Below the pieces are notes generated by a model, which made no database searches, had not been told where the DNA came from, and saw only the letters and a list, made by a program, of their open reading frames with translations. Made by a program: the position numbers and the translations under genes. This document shows, one piece after another, positions 1,406 to 64,000 of a DNA stretch of 64,000 nucleotides (positions are counted from its first letter, which is position 1; every line of letters begins with the position of its first letter). Location of the stretch: positions 45,418-109,417 of the IMG/VR virus record IMGVR_UViG_3300036818_000127, one strand, 5' to 3'. The stretch comes from a virus.

Positions 1406-3850
1406 TCATAGTCCCTCACTTAGTACATTCTCTAGTACTAACTGTACTGCATTTTTCTTATCCCAGAGCTTCGCCAGCATACGGGCATGATCAGCTTTCT
1501 CTATAGCATCTGTCTCTTTTTGATAGAGACTCTCAACCCTCCTGATTTCATATTCATATACCCATAGCTGAGATCGAATAAGATCCTCTAATGAAAATGG
1601 CATTACTGTTTCCTCCATGCCAAGTCCCATTGTGTACTAAGAGTCTGCTTTACAAGATTATATGCATAGGGACTAGATCCGCCATAGACCCAGAACCTTG
1701 AAAAGTGTACTGGTACCCATCGGCCTTCTTCATGGTCCCGACCAGCTAAGAAGTTTACCTCTGTCCCATACTCATCTATATAGTGGTACTGAGCGGGGAG
1801 TAGATAGGTGGAACTAAATTTCCTAGCTGCTGCCTGGAAACTCAGATGGAATCCGAGAGTTTCCAGTAGTGCGGTCACCTCCCTGACTGGAGGACATGTT
1901 CCACAAAATGCATCCAGATTAGCAAGGGTTGCTGTTTTGATCATGGTACCTCCTATTCATCTCCGTGATAATCAGTTTCGTTGTAACATTCATAAGCACT
2001 AGACAAGTCACGTTCCCATGCTGCCTCATTAGCATCTTTCATATCCGCCAATGATACAGGACTTTCTGCTAGTTGCTCTTCTATTCTATGAGTCAGATAG
2101 CCCATGAGAGCGGAGTCTATATGAAAATCATGTTGACTTCCATGCAACTCATCGTCCTCGAAGTCCTCTGGGGAACCATTATAGTCATTATAACTCTTCA
2201 TGAGGGCACGACGGTCTTCTAGGGCGGGCACCGATTTCGTCAGATCAAAATCATTGCAACCGTGATTACTAAAGCTATCTGAAGCAAGCTTTAGGAGTTC
2301 TATGAGAAGCTTCGCCTCAGCATCGGTAAGTGTAATGTTATGCATTGCTTACTCCTGCCTCTCAAAAGACCCTGTTTCAACAAAGCTTTGGAGGTATGGC
2401 AAAAGTGCTGCAACCTGCTCTCGCGAAAAGTGGGTAAAGGGCGCATGGAGGCTAATGTTGTCCTCTTCTCTTATCGCACACCGTAAAGAGTCTTTTTGTG
2501 CAACTATAGTGAATTTCTCATTATAGTTGGCTATAAAGGAAATGTACTGATCCCCAGTGGGGGAAACGCCTGTTTCAATGTTCACTTTGTTTCTCTTTTC
2601 TTGAGCCGTGATCTTTTTCTCCTGTGGGGCTTGTTAGGCCCCACTACTAACTAACTATCCTCTAGCTAAAATCAGAAGCACTGTAACGATGTATGGAAGT
2701 TGAACTTTCACATTCAAAACAGTAGTAAGTGTCATCTCCTGGAACCATATACATCCCGTGAGAATTGGATTGATTGTTCATATCATCATTCCACTCGTCC
2801 CAATTCATAGCATGCCCACATTCAAACAGAACAGTACGATTGCCGAGTGGATTGCTCTCCCAAAACCTCCTGACTATGAGTCTCCCCTCTTCTATGCGGT
2901 CTAGCTCATTAGCAGTAAGTCTCATGCTGCTTGAGGATATCTCGCCCCGACTATCAGCACATACAATATGGATACCCTCTCGGGTAATCTCTGCAATGGT
3001 GGAGCTGACCTCCATAGTGCTCGTATTAAGGCTTTCACGAAGCCTCAAATACAAGATGCCTCTTTCAAAACTGATGATATGTCTCTCGTTCATTTGTTCC
3101 TACTTTCCTGTAAATTTCACATTATACACATGAGGGCTCAAGATATTGACCTTTTGCTCAAGCCCATCTCTATCTATGAAAACTACGATTTGAGTATCAT
3201 ATGCGCCAATCTTCACTTTTCCACCTAGAGAGAGGACTTTTCCACTCTCTTTGACATACCTTCCGGTCTGCGTGTATGATCCGTGTGTAATCCTCATTTT
3301 AGTTGCTCCCCTTATGACTCTCGAAGTGCTACTTCAATAGTCATCAAAGACTGAACCTGATGGTAGAGGTCCATACTTTTTGTATGTGCTGCTACCCATC
3401 CATTTTTGTTGATTAAAGAGTCTGTTAGATCTCGCTGAAGATCTAATGCTTTGTTCAATGCTGAGATTGTATTGAGCAAGGACAATCTCCCTACTCCTAT
3501 TGATGAATCTATCCTATAAAACATTGATTTTTCCTTTACTGTTTCCTAACTTACTGAATACGGGCAGAAAATCCGCGTTTCGCTGGGACATAGGTCAATG
3601 TCCATCCGCTTGAAGTAAAGAGATTTCTGATTGTCATATACTGACTTGCTGCTTCGCTAACTGTGAGATTGTATCTCTGAATGTAACTCTGATTTCCTCT
3701 CATAACCTCATGACAGATTGCTACCCAAGTGAGCCACTGCTGAAGATGTTTTTGACTCCAACTTCGTGTAAACTCTTTATGATCTTTTGCTACCTCATAC
3801 TCAAGCATTGATGTAACTGCTTCTTTGGTCCATGCTAATGGTGCTTTCAT
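1406..3850 (-). other. operon of small phage-like hypothetical ORFs (1406-1630, 1603-1944, 1953-2345, 2349-2585, 2662-3093, 3100-3297, 3312-3524, 3551-3850)
   Basis: Closely packed co-oriented ORFs with SD sites, downstream of the conserved promoter at 3904-3932. Confidence 0.7.
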
Positions 3851-30434: not shown

Positions 30435-31664
30435 ATGGAATCTAATCTTCTTGCAGAGATGCAAAATGATGGGTACAGCGGAAAGCGTAAGGCAACAACG
30501 AGAGGTGGGGAATGGCATGGACCTTGTATCTTGCCAGGGTGCAGCGGACTCGGCAAGGATAGATTAAGGGTACAGCCTAATCACGGACCCTATGGGTTTT
30601 TTGAATGCAGAGTGTGTAGCGAGAGCGGCTCACTAGTGGACTACCTAATACTCAAGAGGGGACATACTAAGCACCAAGCCCTTGTACAGGCAGGTTGGAA
30701 GCCCAAGGATGGGAGTGAGCCGCAATTTCTTCTCCCTAAAAATGTGCTCACTGGTGATGCCTACCTAAGACATTTAGCGCCGCCTCTAGTATGGCAGGCA
30801 CAGGCAAAGGTCTTTGTTGAATACTGCACTAGTGTCCTCTGGGGGGATAAAGGACAACAAGCATTAGACTATCTGCGGGGACGTGGGCTAACAGACGAGA
30901 TCATCAAGATGGCACAGATAGGATACAATCCTGCAAGGTTACGCCAGTCGGCGGAAAAGTGGGGGCGCAAAGAGCATGGATTTCTGGCGGCAGGTATTAC
31001 GATCCCATGGTTTGTCGGGGAAGGTGAATTGTGGAGGGTGACTATCCGCGATGAGAAGATAGCAGATGGCGAGGGGCGCTACAAGCAAATAGCAGGCAGC
31101 TCTAATGGGCTCTATCTCTCTTTTACCCTCAGCTATGATCGACCCGTGGTATTAGTGGAAGGGGAAATCGATGCACTTTCTATTGCTCAGGAGTGTGGAC
31201 ATGATGTTTCAGTATGCGCAACTGGAGGAACCATCGGGAGTCACTCAGCTAGATGCCTCGGCGCACTTGCAGGGAAGGACCTTGTACTCATTGCATTTGA
31301 TGCTGAGGAAAGAGGCGATAAAGCATCAGATTGGTGGCTCAACCGACTAGAGAATGCGCAGCGGCTCCGACCGTTCTGGAAGGATGCCAATCAGATGTTG
31401 CAGGAGGGTGTGGACTTGCTAGAGGATTGGATACTGCCGAGACTTGAGTCTATTCTCTATGGTCCTAGTCCTATACCTACTCCCGAGAGCAGTGATGTAT
31501 GCAAAGGATGTGGGTGTCCTTTCCCGTCATTTGAGGGCTGGGAACCTGAGAATATTCCAATGGATGATGTTATGAACTTTGACCCTGAAGATGGTGAAAT
31601 GTACTGTGAAAAATGTAGGCCAGGCCTTTTTGAACAAGTATGCGAATTAGCACAAGCATCATAA
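30435..31664 (+). CDS. DNA primase (Zn-binding + TOPRIM)
   Basis: EWHGPC..C/CRVC zinc region, ALDYLRGRGL, VLVEGEIDAL, AFDAE, KDAN. Confidence 0.85.
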   Translation: MESNLLAEMQNDGYSGKRKATTRGGEWHGPCILPGCSGLGKDRLRVQPNHGPYGFFECRVCSESGSLVDYLILKRGHTKHQALVQAGWKPKDGSEPQFLLPKNVLTGDAYLRHLAPPLVWQAQAKVFVEYCTSVLWGDKGQQALDYLRGRGLTDEIIKMAQIGYNPARLRQSAEKWGRKEHGFLAAGITIPWFVGEGELWRVTIRDEKIADGEGRYKQIAGSSNGLYLSFTLSYDRPVVLVEGEIDALSIAQECGHDVSVCATGGTIGSHSARCLGALAGKDLVLIAFDAEERGDKASDWWLNRLENAQRLRPFWKDANQMLQEGVDLLEDWILPRLESILYGPSPIPTPESSDVCKGCGCPFPSFEGWEPENIPMDDVMNFDPEDGEMYCEKCRPGLFEQVCELAQAS

Positions 31665-36396: not shown

Positions 36397-36655
36397 ATTG
36401 CAGTACCCTCAAGGCGGGTCGATGGATTGCAACTCGACAGGAATGCGCGGCCAGGTCTCTAGCATGATCAATTGCAGTACCCTCAAGGCGGGTCGATGGA
36501 TTGCAACTGGAATATCCTCTCCAGTAGATATCAACATACATCGGATTGCAGTACCCTCAAGGCGGGTCGATGGATTGCAACTTAGAAAGTCATTCGAGAG
36601 ACACTTCCCTGATTTTGTATTGCAGTACCCTCAAGGCGGGTCGATGGATTGCAAC
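36397..36655 (-). CRISPR. CRISPR mini-array: 4 identical 37-bp repeats, 3 spacers of 37 nt
   Basis: ATTGCAGTACCCTCAAGGCGGGTCGATGGATTGCAAC at 36397, 36471, 36545 and 36619. Minus orientation is inferred from the leader-like region with TTGACA on the right and the terminator on the left. Confidence 0.95.
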
Positions 36656-37337: not shown

Positions 37338-37600
37338 AATATACCCTCAGATGGATCGATGGAAATGAAAAGTATTAGTCACCTAATTCAGTTGCAGTAT
37401 CCTCAGATGGATCGAAAAGTAAATCTGAACTATCGACTAAAGTAGTTGCAGTACCCTACCAACGGGTCGAATTGGTTAAAGTAGAGAGTATACCCCTATA
37501 CAGTTGCAGTACCCTCTAACGGGTCTAAGTGCAGAAAGCGAGTATCAAACATATGAATACCGTTGCAGTATCCTAGCTCGGATCAACAGAGCTAGGATAC
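37338..37600 (-). CRISPR. degenerate CRISPR-like array: ~5 diverged repeats with short spacers
   Basis: GTTGCAGTA(C/T)CCT...GG(A/G)TC at 37391, 37445, 37503 and 37562, plus a remnant at ~37341. Period is 54-59 nt versus 74 nt in the canonical array. Confidence 0.75.
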
Positions 37601-46981: not shown

Positions 46982-47404
46982 GTCAGGGACCTGATCCCTT
47001 AAAAGGGATGGGCTTGTAGAGATGGGGGTAGTTTTTGCCCGTCTTCTCTCTAGCTTCACCTGACCAGACCCAGCCAGGGCTGTTCCTAGAAGGCTCATAG
47101 AGAGCGGGAAACAGCTATCGGGCTACGTTAGAGGCGAAATTAGGTACCATAGGATGCGAGGGCCAGTCCGATGCTCTACGGTTGCAGGTTAAACAGGTTT
47201 ACGAGGGTTAGTGCCAGTGCTTGCAACGACAAACCGCTTTCTAACTTCGTCGAGGCCCCCATTACCTGGGAAACCAGTGGGGTTTAGCCGTTCCGTCATA
47301 AAACGGCTCCCCGCAAGGGGATTACTCCTAAACTAATCCAGCCTGCGGGCTACTTCTTTCCTCCCAACCACTAAAAGGGAATGGGTTTCCAGAAAGGATA
47401 ACTG
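46982..47404 (+). mobile_element. non-autonomous IS200/IS605-family element with IscB-type omegaRNA (HEARO-like), no iscB ORF
   Basis: GTCAGGGACC..CCCTTAAAAGGG..GGCTTG, TGACCAGAC, CTACGTT, GGATGC..CCAGTCC, TTAAACAG, AAACC..TAAC..GTCGAGGC..ATTACC; terminal hairpin shared with 9962-10390. Confidence 0.85.
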
Positions 47405-58667: not shown

Positions 58668-58958
58668 CTACTTTTTCATCTTTACATACAACCTCATCCA
58701 ATATCTTCTACTCTGTTCAATTAGCTCATCTTTCCTTGACTCAACATCTTCGAGCTGCTTTGGGTGGATCTTCCAACGTCCACCACGCCCTCTACTATTG
58801 AGCTTCCTTTCCCTGTCTGCCTGTAACCATCCCTTTCTACACCAAGTACATGCAGTCGCCAGTGATACGTGATATATCTCGCTTACTTGTCTTGTTGTGT
58901 AGTAGTCATGTTCTACACGTAAATTACTAAGAGTCTGCTGATGATACTCTGTTGCCAT
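58668..58958 (-). CDS. HTH_17/MerR-like DNA-binding protein
   Basis: YYTTRQVSEIYHVSLATACTWCRKGWLQA...GGRWKI. Confidence 0.8.
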   Translation of the reverse strand: MATEYHQQTLSNLRVEHDYYTTRQVSEIYHVSLATACTWCRKGWLQADRERKLNSRGRGGRWKIHPKQLEDVESRKDELIEQSRRYWMRLYVKMKK

Positions 58959-59227: not shown

Positions 59228-59270
59228 AAAAAGAGGCTTACTCATTGGGGGAGTAAGCCTCTTTTTTTTA
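59228..59270. terminator. bidirectional terminator after the cas12-like/wHTH operon
   Basis: aaaagaggcttactc-loop-gagtaagcctctttttt. Confidence 0.8.
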
Positions 59271-59594
59271 CGCATTGTATCTCTCTCTACTTGGGAGAAG
59301 CACATATCCATAATCTTGCACGCAATATACATAAAAGCCGGTCCATATGATTTTGCGTCGAATACGGTTGATATGCTTTTCCATCATTACCCTCGCATTC
59401 CTGTCAGCATCGCGGTTATAGACAATGCGTGCAAGATCATCATAAGTAACCGGAGTGCCATTCCTCAGGGGATAGATCAATCGGTACTCAGTCGGCGTGA
59501 AAGGTATGCCTCTACCCTCTGAGACAAGCGCATACCTTTGACTGCTCCACGGTACTCCCTTGGCCCCAGCGAGCTTCTTAAACTCTATTTGCAT
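59268..59594 (-). CDS. stand-alone OmpR/PhoB-type winged-helix (Trans_reg_C) protein
   Basis: FTPTEYRLIYPL..GTPVTYDDLARIVY...MEKHINRIRRKI...VQDYGY; starts 12 nt after the Cas12-like stop. Confidence 0.8.
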   Translation of the reverse strand: MQIEFKKLAGAKGVPWSSQRYALVSEGRGIPFTPTEYRLIYPLRNGTPVTYDDLARIVYNRDADRNARVMMEKHINRIRRKIIWTGFYVYCVQDYGYVLLPSRERYNA

Positions 59595-61386: not shown

Positions 61387-61415
61387 TTGACAACTTGATT
61401 AGCGGCTATTATACT
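61387..61415 (+). promoter_or_regulatory. sigma70 promoter for the ncRNA/array, divergent from the cas12-like gene
   Basis: TTGACA(61387-92)-17 nt-TATACT(61410-15). Confidence 0.85.
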
Positions 61416-61421
61416 CTGCTC

Positions 61422-61925
61422 TGTAATCTTCGGATTGCTTGGGCTCGTGAGCTACGGCTCGGTAGTTGCAGGCCCAATCCCTGGGAGAGTGCCGTATGAC
61501 TTCTGATTCCCTGTTGAGGGATAAGAAGCGAGTCATGGTCATATAGGGTACATTCGTGTGCCTTGTGACTATGCCTTCTCTGATTCCCGATATCGGGAAA
61601 AGGAAGCTTGACACCTTCTGGAGAGAACAACGCCACAAAACCGGAAACGGTACTCGCTTCGCGGTGGCTCCCTTTGGGCCAACTCTCATGTGCAGCACGA
61701 TGAATGAGCAGGGGATGTTGCAACTCTGCTAATCTACTGATGCTTTGATGGGATACACTGCTACAGCCTGGCAGTGGGACGGCTCACTCTCATGTTGCAT
61801 TAGAACTTGTTGAGACGCTCCTTTACAACTGAAGGAATGAAGCCTTTCAGTATTTGTTGCATTATGCTGAAATGCGGTTCTACCTGCTCATAGCTAGTTG
61901 TTGCATAGTTGATGAGCAGGTAGGT
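61422..61925 (+). ncRNA. structured tracr/scout-like RNA leader
   Basis: Dense hairpins with UUCG and GAAA tetraloops (gtaatc-ttcg-gattgc, agggtaca-ttcg-tgtgcctt, accg-gaaa-cggt); four hairpins with UGUUGCA loops; no credible ORF. Confidence 0.75.
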
Positions 61926-61939
61926 GTCTATAAGAGAGT

Positions 61940-64000
61940 CTGTGCAGCTATGTAAGAGGATATATAGCGCAGCATTGCTTGTAACCAATAAGGATAGATG
62001 ACAACATAGAGTATAGGCTGTCGACTGCAACCCGTTACTTGATATGTCAGAGTGTAACTTAGATGGATCTATGCAACCACGGGCTTTTATTTGCAATTGC
62101 AGCAAGCAATATGGCAAGATGCAACAAATGGACAATTTATATGATCCTGCAACCATCAGACAGGGCTACAGCCTGCTCGCTAACCATGCAACCTTGGGAG
62201 AGTTCTGATCGCAATACTGAAGTAGTAGGTGATAATTGCAAGAGGCTGACTGGAAGAGGGAGGGCGCAGCTAGTGCAACCTCAAGCAGTATCAGGGATGC
62301 AACTGATGTGATTGGAGAGGAATGCAGCAACTAGGCACTCCCATCGAGATGCAATACTGGCGATCTATCCATGTAACCATCTTCGTCGGTCCTGCATGCA
62401 ACGTTCTTGACCCTTACTGCAACAAGCAGTTCGCAATCGCAACTTGTATGGTTTAGGCTAGTATTATCCATGTAACTATTGAACGCTGTCCGGCAATGAT
62501 GAGCAACGGTGAAAGGCAAAGTCTAGTGTGCTGCAACTATCTTATAGTCTAGACTAAATGCAATGAATATCAAGGTAAGCCTCGCAACCATTTCAATGCA
62601 ACTAAGAGAAGTATAGGTAGTATAGTGCAACTCACAAATGACGGCAACATCAAGAAGTCACAGTATGCAACCAAGCTACGCGGGACCTTGCAACAACGGG
62701 CAATAGCTATATGCAACAAGAATGTCATATTGGACAGTGCAACAACGAGTAGAAGATTTGCATGCAGCACAAATGAAATACTACATAGCAACATATGGAC
62801 CAGCGATCAAGGGAACTGCAACAAGAGGGCGTTGTCTGGAGGATGTAACACAAGGAGCTAGATAGCGATTGCAACTTTCATAGAGTCACGCAACTGTAGT
62901 AGATGCAATGGTACAAGCTCGTTCACAACTAACATGACACTGCAACAAGCAAGAGACACTGCAACAAAAAGGATATAGGGACAATTGCAATAATCTACGA
63001 TGGCCCCATGCAACCTGATAGAGGAAGATATTCAATAATTGTAACTGAAACCTCCGCAACTATAGAATATGCATTCTAGACTAAGAATTATGCAACTAGT
63101 TGGTTGCTAAGGCATAATGCAGCTATCAGCGGCTAGATATGCAACTTACTTTCAACACACTCTTGCAACATCCATCTCGACATCTCAATTCTATCAATGC
63201 AGCGACTTTGATGTTCCTTACATGCAATGAGTAGAGAAAATGCAACAGCAAAAGAGTGAAGAACGCAACTATCATTGACCAGCTATGCAACTATGGTTCT
63301 CATATCATAATAGTTTATACGCAACTTCTGTAGAGGCATCATGCAACATGTATTGAAAGCATTGCAACCTCATCTGACAGCATCCTGATGCAACATGATT
63401 TCTCTTTGTACATGCATCTCGCAACAACTGGCAATGACATCTACAACGGTAGAGGAATGGGGCATAGCATGCAACTCAGGCAAGTTATCACTGCAACATG
63501 GGGAAGTCTTGCGATATCAATGCAACCAGTGTTCACATACGTGGAAGGAATGCAACATGTTCAATAATATGCAGCCTCAATGGATTTTATGCAACTATTA
63601 GGTAAATAGAGAGCTATGCAACTGATTAACCCTATTCACTCAATATGCAACAAATAGGTGGTACTGCAACACTGATGAGGGTTTTGCATCATCATACCCA
63701 AGATGCAACTATGGCTTTTTGAGGCAACTACGAACATGTCAAATATATGTAACGATCAAGAGAGAACCTAGTGCAACCATGGGCGGGCATGCAATGAGTA
63801 GACATAGCAACAACTGAGTGCAACATTCTTGATCGAGAGAAATGCAACATAAGGGTTATCATAGCAATAGCCAAGCATGAATGATGCAACCATGACAGAG
63901 CAAGCAACACACATGTGGTACATTGCAGCATTGGAAAGCAACTAGAGGGGAAATAAGCAGCAGGTAAACGGAATAATAGATGCAACAATATCTGTAGGAC
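61940..64000 (+). repeat. mini-repeat guide-like array: (A)TGCAAC every ~20-30 nt with unique spacers; runs off the window end
   Basis: About 43 exact TGCAAC plus ~40 single-variant copies by eye, all on the + strand, period not a multiple of 3, no long ORF. Confidence 0.85.

Follow-up and report, generated by a model that had tools for sequence, protein, structure and literature searches.

Scaffold hexamer, repeat ends and extra GUUGCA copies at a Cas12f-like locus with a mini-repeat guide array in a soil phage

The scoutRNA of Cas12c and Cas12d pairs, as a helper RNA, with the repeat of the crRNA, and a very short anti-repeat complementarity suffices for this pairing. A guide-proximal pseudoknot, described with the structure of ISDra2 TnpB, is said there to be conserved in all Cas12 guide RNAs; it joins a segment at the 5′ end of the scaffold to about 5 nt directly upstream of the guide (PMC10097598). 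The type V-K CASTs contain truncated units, in which the repeat is reduced to the part that pairs with the tracrRNA and the spacer measures 17 bp (bioRxiv 10.1101/2021.02.06.429022). Pseudoknot pairing, Cas12f-like effectors and truncated repeats are each already known. Here we describe a soil phage that carries a mini-Cas12 locus together with a guide array, in which only the last 6 nt (UGCAAC) of a CRISPR repeat are kept. We infer the RNA–RNA pairings, the guide function and the nuclease inactivity at this locus from sequence.

We analysed a stretch of 64,000 nt (hereafter referred to as the window), which corresponds to bases 45418–109417 of an IMG/VR phage record; this record is complete at 109,417 bp and carries a terminal repeat of 127 bp. 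Positions are those of the window unless record bases are named; the features of the locus are collected in Table 1.

Table 1. Positions of the effector gene, the scaffold RNA, the junction elements and the guide array
Feature	Position	Strand	Remarks
Effector gene P0001	59607–61298	−	563 aa; Cas12f/TnpB-like by Pfam, PDB profile, AlphaFold and Foldseek
Sigma-70-type promoter, divergent from effector gene	61387–61415	+	TTGACA-17-TATACT; 11/12 consensus matches
tracrRNA/omegaRNA-like scaffold	61422–61724	+	about 300 nt; closes with repeat half GGGGAUG-UUGCAAC
GGUA and GUUGCA hexamer, internal loop	61461–61470	+	covarying anti-repeat, putative pseudoknot partner; hexamer at 61465–61470
GTTGCA copies 1, 2, 3 and 4	61717–61722, 61794–61799, 61856–61861, 61900–61905	+	
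Hairpin H1	61707–61730	+	−9.9 kcal/mol, z −2.5; loop GAUGUUGCAA, copy 1
Interspersed hairpin	61756–61776		z −2.3
Hairpin candidate H2	61783–61814	+	−5.0 kcal/mol, z +0.8; 156/200 shuffles fold as well
Conserved 15-mer CUCUCAUGUUGCAUU	61787–61801	+	copy 2; identical in L007 leader; not in a hairpin
R*, degenerate full-length repeat GUUGCAUU...UUUACAAC	61794–61829	+	36 nt, the full-repeat length; copy 2 at start
Interspersed hairpin	61816–61838		z −3.3
Hairpin H3	61845–61872	+	−11.0 kcal/mol, z −3.1; loop UUGUUGCAUU, copy 3
Hairpin H4, directly before array	61880–61923	+	−25.9 kcal/mol, z −6.0; copy 4 in loop
(a)AUGCAAC mini-repeat array	61940–64000, onward over the record ends to record base about 640	+	
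Guide unit shared with L007	about 63980–64000		29 nt at 93%
Guide unit shared with L007	record about 31545–31565		21 nt at 100%

The effector gene, the scaffold RNA and the guide arrays

The predicted effector P0001 contains the Cas12f1-like_TNB domain of Pfam (PF07282; 1.6e-8), and the profile of its family matched the RuvC regions of CasX and Cas12f in the PDB with an E-value of about 1e-19. Its AlphaFold model (pLDDT 85) had AsCas12f, OsCas12f and CasX as the best Foldseek matches over the whole chain (E 1e-15, TM 0.65 on the target), at an identity of only 12–16%. Thus, P0001 has the RuvC-like fold, the TNB zinc finger and the WED/REC architecture of type V effectors; its N-terminal 280 aa gave no sequence match. 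The sole Cas12c match to the profile was a zero-stretch (E 0.53), and none was among the Foldseek matches listed. The family is small, with 29 proteins among 5.8 billion, several of them named from Ktedonobacteria. The D-E-D triad of the RuvC domain is not intact: P0001 keeps the RuvC-I Asp and the RuvC-II Glu, but the HAD motif of RuvC-III is replaced by TDVG, DNVY, TDVY and ANVY in P0001–P0004, respectively (alignment A1), leaving G, Y, Y and Y in the Asp column of this closest clade (65–67% identity). The more distant homologues P0005–P0013 and P0015–P0018 retain H-A-D. P0001 probably does not cut DNA, and the likely output of this apparently nuclease-dead, RNA-guided protein would be DNA binding or silencing.

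P0001 is the sole TNB-domain gene of the phage, in which no second TnpB/Cas12 gene was found. A search across the complete 109-kb record gave no match to Cas1; cas1 and cas2 are also missing from many V-F and V-U systems (PMC10691335). Downstream of the effector gene come a stand-alone OmpR-type winged-helix gene (59268–59594), which scored 26.0 bits for Trans_reg_C where the cut-off is 26.2, and then an HTH_17 gene (58668–58958). The phage of the related contig L007 has no ORF of at least 80 aa after its effector, so that the winged-helix gene appears to be absent there, and the HTH_17 gene is present. The same contig (L007:1–1700, on the plus strand of the locus) also has a second, ordinary IS605-type TnpB-like ORF just beyond its mini-repeat array. 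An Rfam scan of the window returned a HEARO RNA, the IscB-type omegaRNA, at 46982–47265 (102.9 bits), and nothing else; no tRNAs were found.

The promoter recurs in five metagenome contigs (L006–L009 and L012), which represent two further lineages at 66–70% protein identity; these contigs also have a conserved ~190-nt scaffold and an array of this kind. Their arrays open with a few full repeats of 36–37 nt that start GTTGCAAT and end ATTGCAAC. The comparison within the clade with the repeat end UGCAAC covers only three independent lineages and one paralogue. A related-locus search of the viral and genome contig collections found no relatives, and a scan of these contigs with the scaffold pattern gave 0 matches; with a relaxed pattern there were 43, of which 0 had a UGCAAC array, and all were taken as chance. 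In the 5′ domain of the scaffold, compensatory changes were observed in 15 of the 30 predicted pairs (five sequences), and the 526-nt segment 61420–61945 folded with a z-score of −5.3 against shuffles. The 3′ module GGUACUCGCUUCGCGGUGGCUCCC, common to the scaffolds of the window and of the paralogue, ends at 61674.

The array comprises 103 units in 2.6 kb, most of them spaced 19–31 nt (mode 22), with exact TGCAAC in 52 and the extended consensus (c)AATGCAAC(a) (cAAUGCAACa), which has A at −2 and −3. GTTGCA never occurs inside it. The 127-bp ‘direct terminal repeat’ of the record (window 63874–64000 and record bases 1–127) falls within the mini-repeat array, so that the array crosses the join of the circular assembly. 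The array spacers matched the phage's own genome no better than shuffles did, and no target was found for the ‘spacers’ of the region between scaffold and array. Only two guide units are common to this phage and the L007 phage, and the other spacers all differ. Beside P0001 there are only mini-repeats of 6–9 nt, whereas the arrays of L007, L009 and the paralogue mix full repeats of 36–37 nt with mini units.

The paralogue (G000:C1:31400–33130, minus strand; L003/L004) consists of a scaffold at record 32.9–33.1 kb and a hybrid array, with no adjoining effector. Five or six full 36-nt repeats, beginning (G/A)TTGCAA and ending ATTGCAAC, follow directly after the scaffold and are followed in turn by about 36 mini-repeat units. 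Elsewhere in the window (36397–36655) is a canonical CRISPR array of four 37-nt repeats ATTGCAGTACCCTCAAGGCGGGTCGATGGATTGCAAC, also ending ATTGCAAC, with 37-nt spacers and no adjacent cas genes; its spacers had no self match in the phage, nor did the IMG/VR viral contigs contain an exact match to either of the two 24-nt cores searched. Four truncated repeat-like units with a period of 56–59 nt lie at 37386–37590. On the plus strand they read as the 5′ part of the repeat (GTTGCAGTACCC, a loop and GGGTCGA) and on the minus strand as a hairpin followed by ACTGCAAC; with either reading they are intermediates between the full-length and the minimal form of the repeat.

Covariation of the scaffold hexamer with the repeat end

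In three distant homologue loci, L010, L011 and L013 (28–34% protein identity), the scaffold and array lie downstream of the gene. A common scaffold module was found in the window, its paralogue and L007–L011: an outer GC-rich stem, an inner hairpin, and a 3′-side internal loop with (G)GUA followed by a hexamer. The module GGUACUCGCUUCGCGG of the scaffold recurs in L010 and L011; in L013 the inner hairpin is missing and the module is reduced. In three clades the hexamer is exactly complementary to the 6 nt with which the local repeat ends, namely GUUGCA with the repeat end UGCAAC in the window, L007, L008 and L009, CCCUCA with UGAGGG in L010 and L011, and GUCACA with UGUGAC in L013. The locus thus has a helper RNA with a repeat-complementary anti-repeat, as tracrRNA-using type V systems do, and its hexamer covaries in three clades. 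As a counter-point, the scaffold hexamer of the paralogue, GUUACA, mismatches most of its own UGCAAC units.

The hexamer at 61465–61470 is a fifth plus-strand copy of GTTGCA; it stands at +44 of the scaffold, ~250 bases upstream of the four copies that the first-pass annotation had marked. GGUA and the hexamer are invariant in four of the five UGCAAC-clade scaffolds, and GGUAGUUG is unpaired in the alignment-based consensus structure of the scaffold 5′ domain. The hexamer is free only in this consensus; the single-sequence fold of the window pairs it locally.

Judged by covariation only, the arrangement of hexamer and repeat end matches the guide-proximal pseudoknot of Cas12 guide RNAs and of the TnpB omegaRNA. 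The match would make the mini-repeat the repeat-side strand of that pseudoknot. The annotation had taken GUUGCA for an anti-repeat of minimal guide units, acting through a pairing as short as that of the scoutRNA, and these parts of its proposal are supported. It had also expected loop and mini-repeat to change together across homologous loci: a different copy, the scaffold hexamer, does so. The hexamer at 61465–61470, which covaries with the repeat end, has a better claim than the marked loops to a docking role in guide loading.

We then considered the variants of the mini-repeat, which had been described as G·U-compatible with GUUGCA, with the caveat that they are also ordinary transition mutations. 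Counted in four arrays with no selection of variants by eye, transitions at repeat positions 3–6, which keep wobble pairing with GUUGCA, numbered 84 against 6.4 expected, a 13-fold enrichment. G2 to A, the sole internal transition that breaks pairing, stayed near background (5 against 2.9 expected; P about 2e-11 under equal enrichment), as did transversions at positions 3–6 (12 against 14.6 expected). The compatibility therefore holds, and the variant spectrum favours RNA pairing over plain mutation bias. The common repeat variants of L011, UGAGGA and UGAAGG, are not wobble-compatible with CCCUCA; taken as a general rule, the wobble argument is weakened by this. The arrays of L010 and L013 are regular. 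In L011, the 34%-identity homologue, an irregular array at 2440–3200 keeps only (A/C)TGAGG in 18 units 11–84 nt apart. It is an independent instance, so that reduction to the putative pseudoknot strand occurred more than once in this effector family.

The GUUGCA copies between scaffold and array

The segment 61707–61923 is the junction between the ~300-nt scaffold and the ~100-unit guide array. It holds four plus-strand GTTGCA copies in 217 nt (Poisson P about 3e-7), and the ORFs overlapping it had no Pfam match. The first-pass annotation had read it as four tandem hairpins that display the anti-repeat in their loops. The coordinates and sequences of the hairpins were as it gave them, and the two interspersed hairpins that it had placed among them are also predicted by the fold; its suggestion that their CAGCC and CAAC loops could kiss the GUUG loops is unsupported. 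Of the four proposed motif-displaying hairpins, H1, H3 and H4 stand out against shuffles but H2 does not (Table 1); the motif of copy 2 is fully paired elsewhere in the 530-nt fold. The loop of H3 has an unpaired probability of 0.7–1.0. In H4, which has a perfect outer stem of 12 bp, two weak inner pairs occupy the G and C of the motif, and GUU and the final A are free. A thermodynamic fold of 61422–62330 gave no informative long-range pairing of loops with repeats, pseudoknots being outside the reach of such folds.

Several features of the junction point to full-length repeats as the source of the copies. The first loop reads GTTGCAAC, which means, as a correction to the earlier reading, that sense UGCAAC is also present there (61719–61724). 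This sense repeat end, overlapped by copy 1, probably closes the scaffold as its pseudoknot strand in cis. The sequence GGGGATG-TTGCAAC (61710–61724), which starts about 35 nt past the end of the scaffold 3′ module, aligns to GGAATGATTGCAAT of the paralogous array and resembles the 3′ end of its repeat, GGGGGATGATTGCAAC. Copy 2 opens R*, whose ends are common to L007 (GTTGCATTG...TTTTACAAT), where the preceding CUCUCAU also recurs; in the paralogous array, the 11-mer CTCATGTTGCA spans the end of a spacer and the start of a full-length repeat. The motif of copy 3 aligns to TGTTGCACTT in L007. At the place aligned to H4, L007 has a strong hairpin with an unrelated stem sequence and a loop without GUUGCA. 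Local alignment of the junction zone gave a z-score of 7.1 with the leader of L007 (0/300 shuffles) and 4.0 with L009, and a weak alignment with the paralogue (z 2.1; 12/300 shuffles). Beyond the ends, alignment of units 1–4 with the interiors of full-length repeats revealed no significant similarity.

The extra copies in the junction zone number five in L009 and two in L007. The leaders of L010, L011 and L013 contain exactly one copy each of the anti-repeat hexamer, and the paralogue has no GUUGCA-bearing hairpins between scaffold and array, every GUUGC there starting or sitting in a full-length repeat. On this evidence the extra copies are peculiar to the UGCAAC clade. Conservation of the loops, which the annotation had made a test of its proposal, was only partial: copies 2 and 3 are kept in the related phage L007, copy 2 lies outside any hairpin, and copy 4 is lineage-specific. 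The heptamer TGTTGCA is intact four times, and the interiors of the former repeats are unrecognisable. The form GTTGCAT occurs in 8 of 11 leader copies from three lineages, and full-length repeats begin GTTGCAA or GTTGCAG. GTTGCAT is complementary to the extended mini-repeat consensus, with which it would form a 9-bp duplex of about −10 kcal/mol. By these comparisons the four copies are heterogeneous, partly conserved and, it appears, derived from leader-proximal repeats.

We tentatively favour, with somewhat less than even confidence, a joint reading in which the scaffold hexamer is the pseudoknot partner and the junction copies are repeat-derived extras, probably auxiliary or insulating. The ~300-nt scaffold and the ~100-unit array would both serve the phage-encoded Cas12f-like protein. 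The last 6 nt of each repeat, beside the guide, would pair with the hexamer in the internal loop of the scaffold 5′ domain, so that the mini-repeat UGCAAC would be the guide-proximal pseudoknot strand and nothing more. The four junction copies would descend from leader-proximal full-length repeats, which in the UGCAAC clade begin GUUGCA and end UGCAAC. Copy 1 would overlap the scaffold-closing sense repeat end, R* would begin with copy 2, and copies 3 and 4 would be the starts of further decayed units, now in hairpin loops. This descent is suggested by the match of GGGGATG-TTGCAAC to the paralogue repeat end, by the length and ends of R*, and by the junction alignments to L007 and L009. Within their own transcript, copies 2 and 3 probably continue to pair with the sense ends of repeats, given their retention across lineages and their match to the extended consensus of the mini-repeat; residual pairing of this kind appears likely also for the copies in general, in view of the four intact heptamers, the prevalence of GTTGCAT and the 9-bp complementarity. 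The pairing copies would then act as auxiliary or insulating anti-repeats that shape the junction. Against descent, a primary function would also be in keeping with copies 2 and 3 being conserved and with copies 1, 3 and 4 lying cleanly in loops.

A working role of the copies in guide handling could take two forms, both of which we consider unlikely on present evidence. In the first, the 15-mer and the GUUGCA loops are working auxiliary anti-repeats, and the multi-copy leader captures, orders or gates the units of the 100-guide transcript for a nuclease-dead Cas12f-like protein; if true, this would be a multi-anti-repeat handling of guides with no described counterpart. The second, rather doubtful for its part, is the proposal of the first-pass annotation itself, in which the loops form a multi-armed anti-repeat platform where minimal crRNAs dock or are processed before or during effector loading. 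Three stable hairpins do present the motif unpaired, and the loop geometry (GUUGCA on the 3′ side, 0–2 nt, closing stem) resembles the anti-repeat module of the scaffold and the single-hairpin version in L013. The complementarity of the loops to the extended mini-repeat consensus, the persistence of copies 2 and 3 in L007 and the extra copies in the same zone of L009 and L007 are also as a platform would have them. However, loop display is conserved in neither L007 nor L009, the best conserved copy is the one outside any hairpin, copy 4 is confined to one lineage, and the paralogous array and the relatives with CCCUCA and GUCACA work without extra copies. A docking or processing platform of four hairpins is therefore unsupported.

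The copies might instead be functionless relics, namely 5′ ends of what were once full-length repeats, now in decay; the hairpins would then be incidental. The homology to the full-length-repeat zone of the paralogue, the retention of repeat length and both ends in R*, and the lack of extra copies in other clades agree with this idea, but mere decay would hardly have kept TGTTGCA exact four times among unrecognisable repeat interiors, left the 15-mer identical between phages whose effectors are only 67% identical, or made the distinct GTTGCAT form recur in three lineages. We regard relics without function as improbable. Somewhat more improbable still is an attenuator or processing element, in which the hairpin cluster, above all H4 and a terminator-like site at 61828–61851, sets the ratio of stop to readthrough or marks cleavage, and the motif is secondary. 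With one scaffold per ~100 guides in the transcript, an excess of scaffold would presumably need termination or processing, and both the window and L007 have a strong pre-array hairpin despite unrelated stem sequences. H4, however, is not followed by a proper U-tract, the terminator scan was little above shuffles (8 found against 3.5 expected in 5 kb), and the presence of GUUGCA in the loops would be left unexplained.

It is very unlikely that the copies are inverted mini-repeat units, that is, minus-strand (a)ATGCAACa elements of a short inverted stretch of array or of a guide set in antisense: although the minus-strand sequences TAATGCAACAAA, TAATGCAACATG, CTATGCAACAAC and AGTTGCAACATC fit the unit consensus and three L009 copies are 18–19 nt apart, there is no minus-strand promoter or scaffold to serve them, their spacing in the window (44–77 nt) is unlike that of the array, and the homology with the plus-strand repeats of the paralogue is collinear. 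We give almost no credence to an RNA anti-CRISPR decoy unrelated to the neighbouring gene, in which UGCAAC units or GUUGCA loops mimic or oppose the 8-nt handle of a host class 1 system, since a scaffold is always linked to the array, as the effector gene is in three lineages, the hexamer of the scaffold changes together with the repeat end and the mini-repeats lack a Cas6-type stem-loop, even though the canonical CRISPR repeat of the phage has the end ATTGCAAC, which we take to resemble the ATTGAAAC-type 8-nt handles of class 1 repeats.

Comparison with known RNA-guided systems

Three known kinds of system were considered and rejected as identities of the locus. A few-nucleotide anti-repeat like that of the scoutRNA is found here in the covarying 6-nt complementarity, but the effector is a ~560-aa Cas12f-like protein rather than Cas12c or Cas12d, and the helper RNA is ~300 nt long and co-transcribed with the array, not short and stand-alone. 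An RNA anti-CRISPR (Racr) does not fit mini-repeats that lack a Cas6-binding stem-loop and are tied to a scaffold and an effector in three lineages. VIPR (vrRNA) consists of tandem 5-nt GGYNN units (bioRxiv 10.64898/2026.10.15.759431), in contrast to units of mostly 19–31 nt with a UGCAAC core.

With Cas12f (type V-F) and the tracrRNA-using Cas12e/CasX, the locus shares the whole fold, the RuvC and TNB profile and a long structured scaffold by the array. It is unlike them in that the RuvC-III Asp is missing in the P0001 clade, the scaffold and array lie upstream of the gene and diverge from it, and there is no Cas1. TldR (bioRxiv 10.1101/2023.11.30.569447) and dCas12f-sigmaE (PMC13472631) are, like this effector, phage-borne, TnpB-derived, apparently nuclease-dead and RNA-guided, but they use one or a few fixed guides in place of a 100-unit array, and there is no sequence relationship beyond the superfamily.

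Compared with the TnpB/Cas12 pseudoknot, the scaffold strand here is a hexamer, and all that is left of the repeat is the strand on its side, which occurs in ~100 tandem units. The two strands would pair in trans or at long range in cis, and the junction zone holds additional copies of the scaffold-side strand, for which an auxiliary pairing role is possible. The literature searched contained no ~100-unit array that keeps only a 6-nt pseudoknot strand with a scaffold hexamer tracking it across clades. These observations suggest a rule for the minimal CRISPR repeat: in this Cas12f-like family the 6-nt pseudoknot strand appears to be enough to mark a guide, and the scaffold hexamer changes alongside. 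Such a rule would explain 100-unit arrays that standard CRISPR finders would miss, and it suggests very compact multiplex guide arrays for small Cas12/TnpB tools. Single loci, and one phage by itself, also offer a natural series that passes from full repeats through truncated ones to units with the repeat end only.

The truncated repeat-spacer unit of type V-K is the closest published parallel to the mini-repeat units. In both, tracrRNA-pairing sequence is all that remains of the repeat and the spacer is short, and both go with a nuclease-inactive Cas12, which in type V-K is Cas12k and here would be P0001. The present locus differs in its retained repeat of 6–9 nt and in having no transposon; and whereas in type V-K one or a few truncated units lie beside a normal array, here ~100 such units form the array itself.
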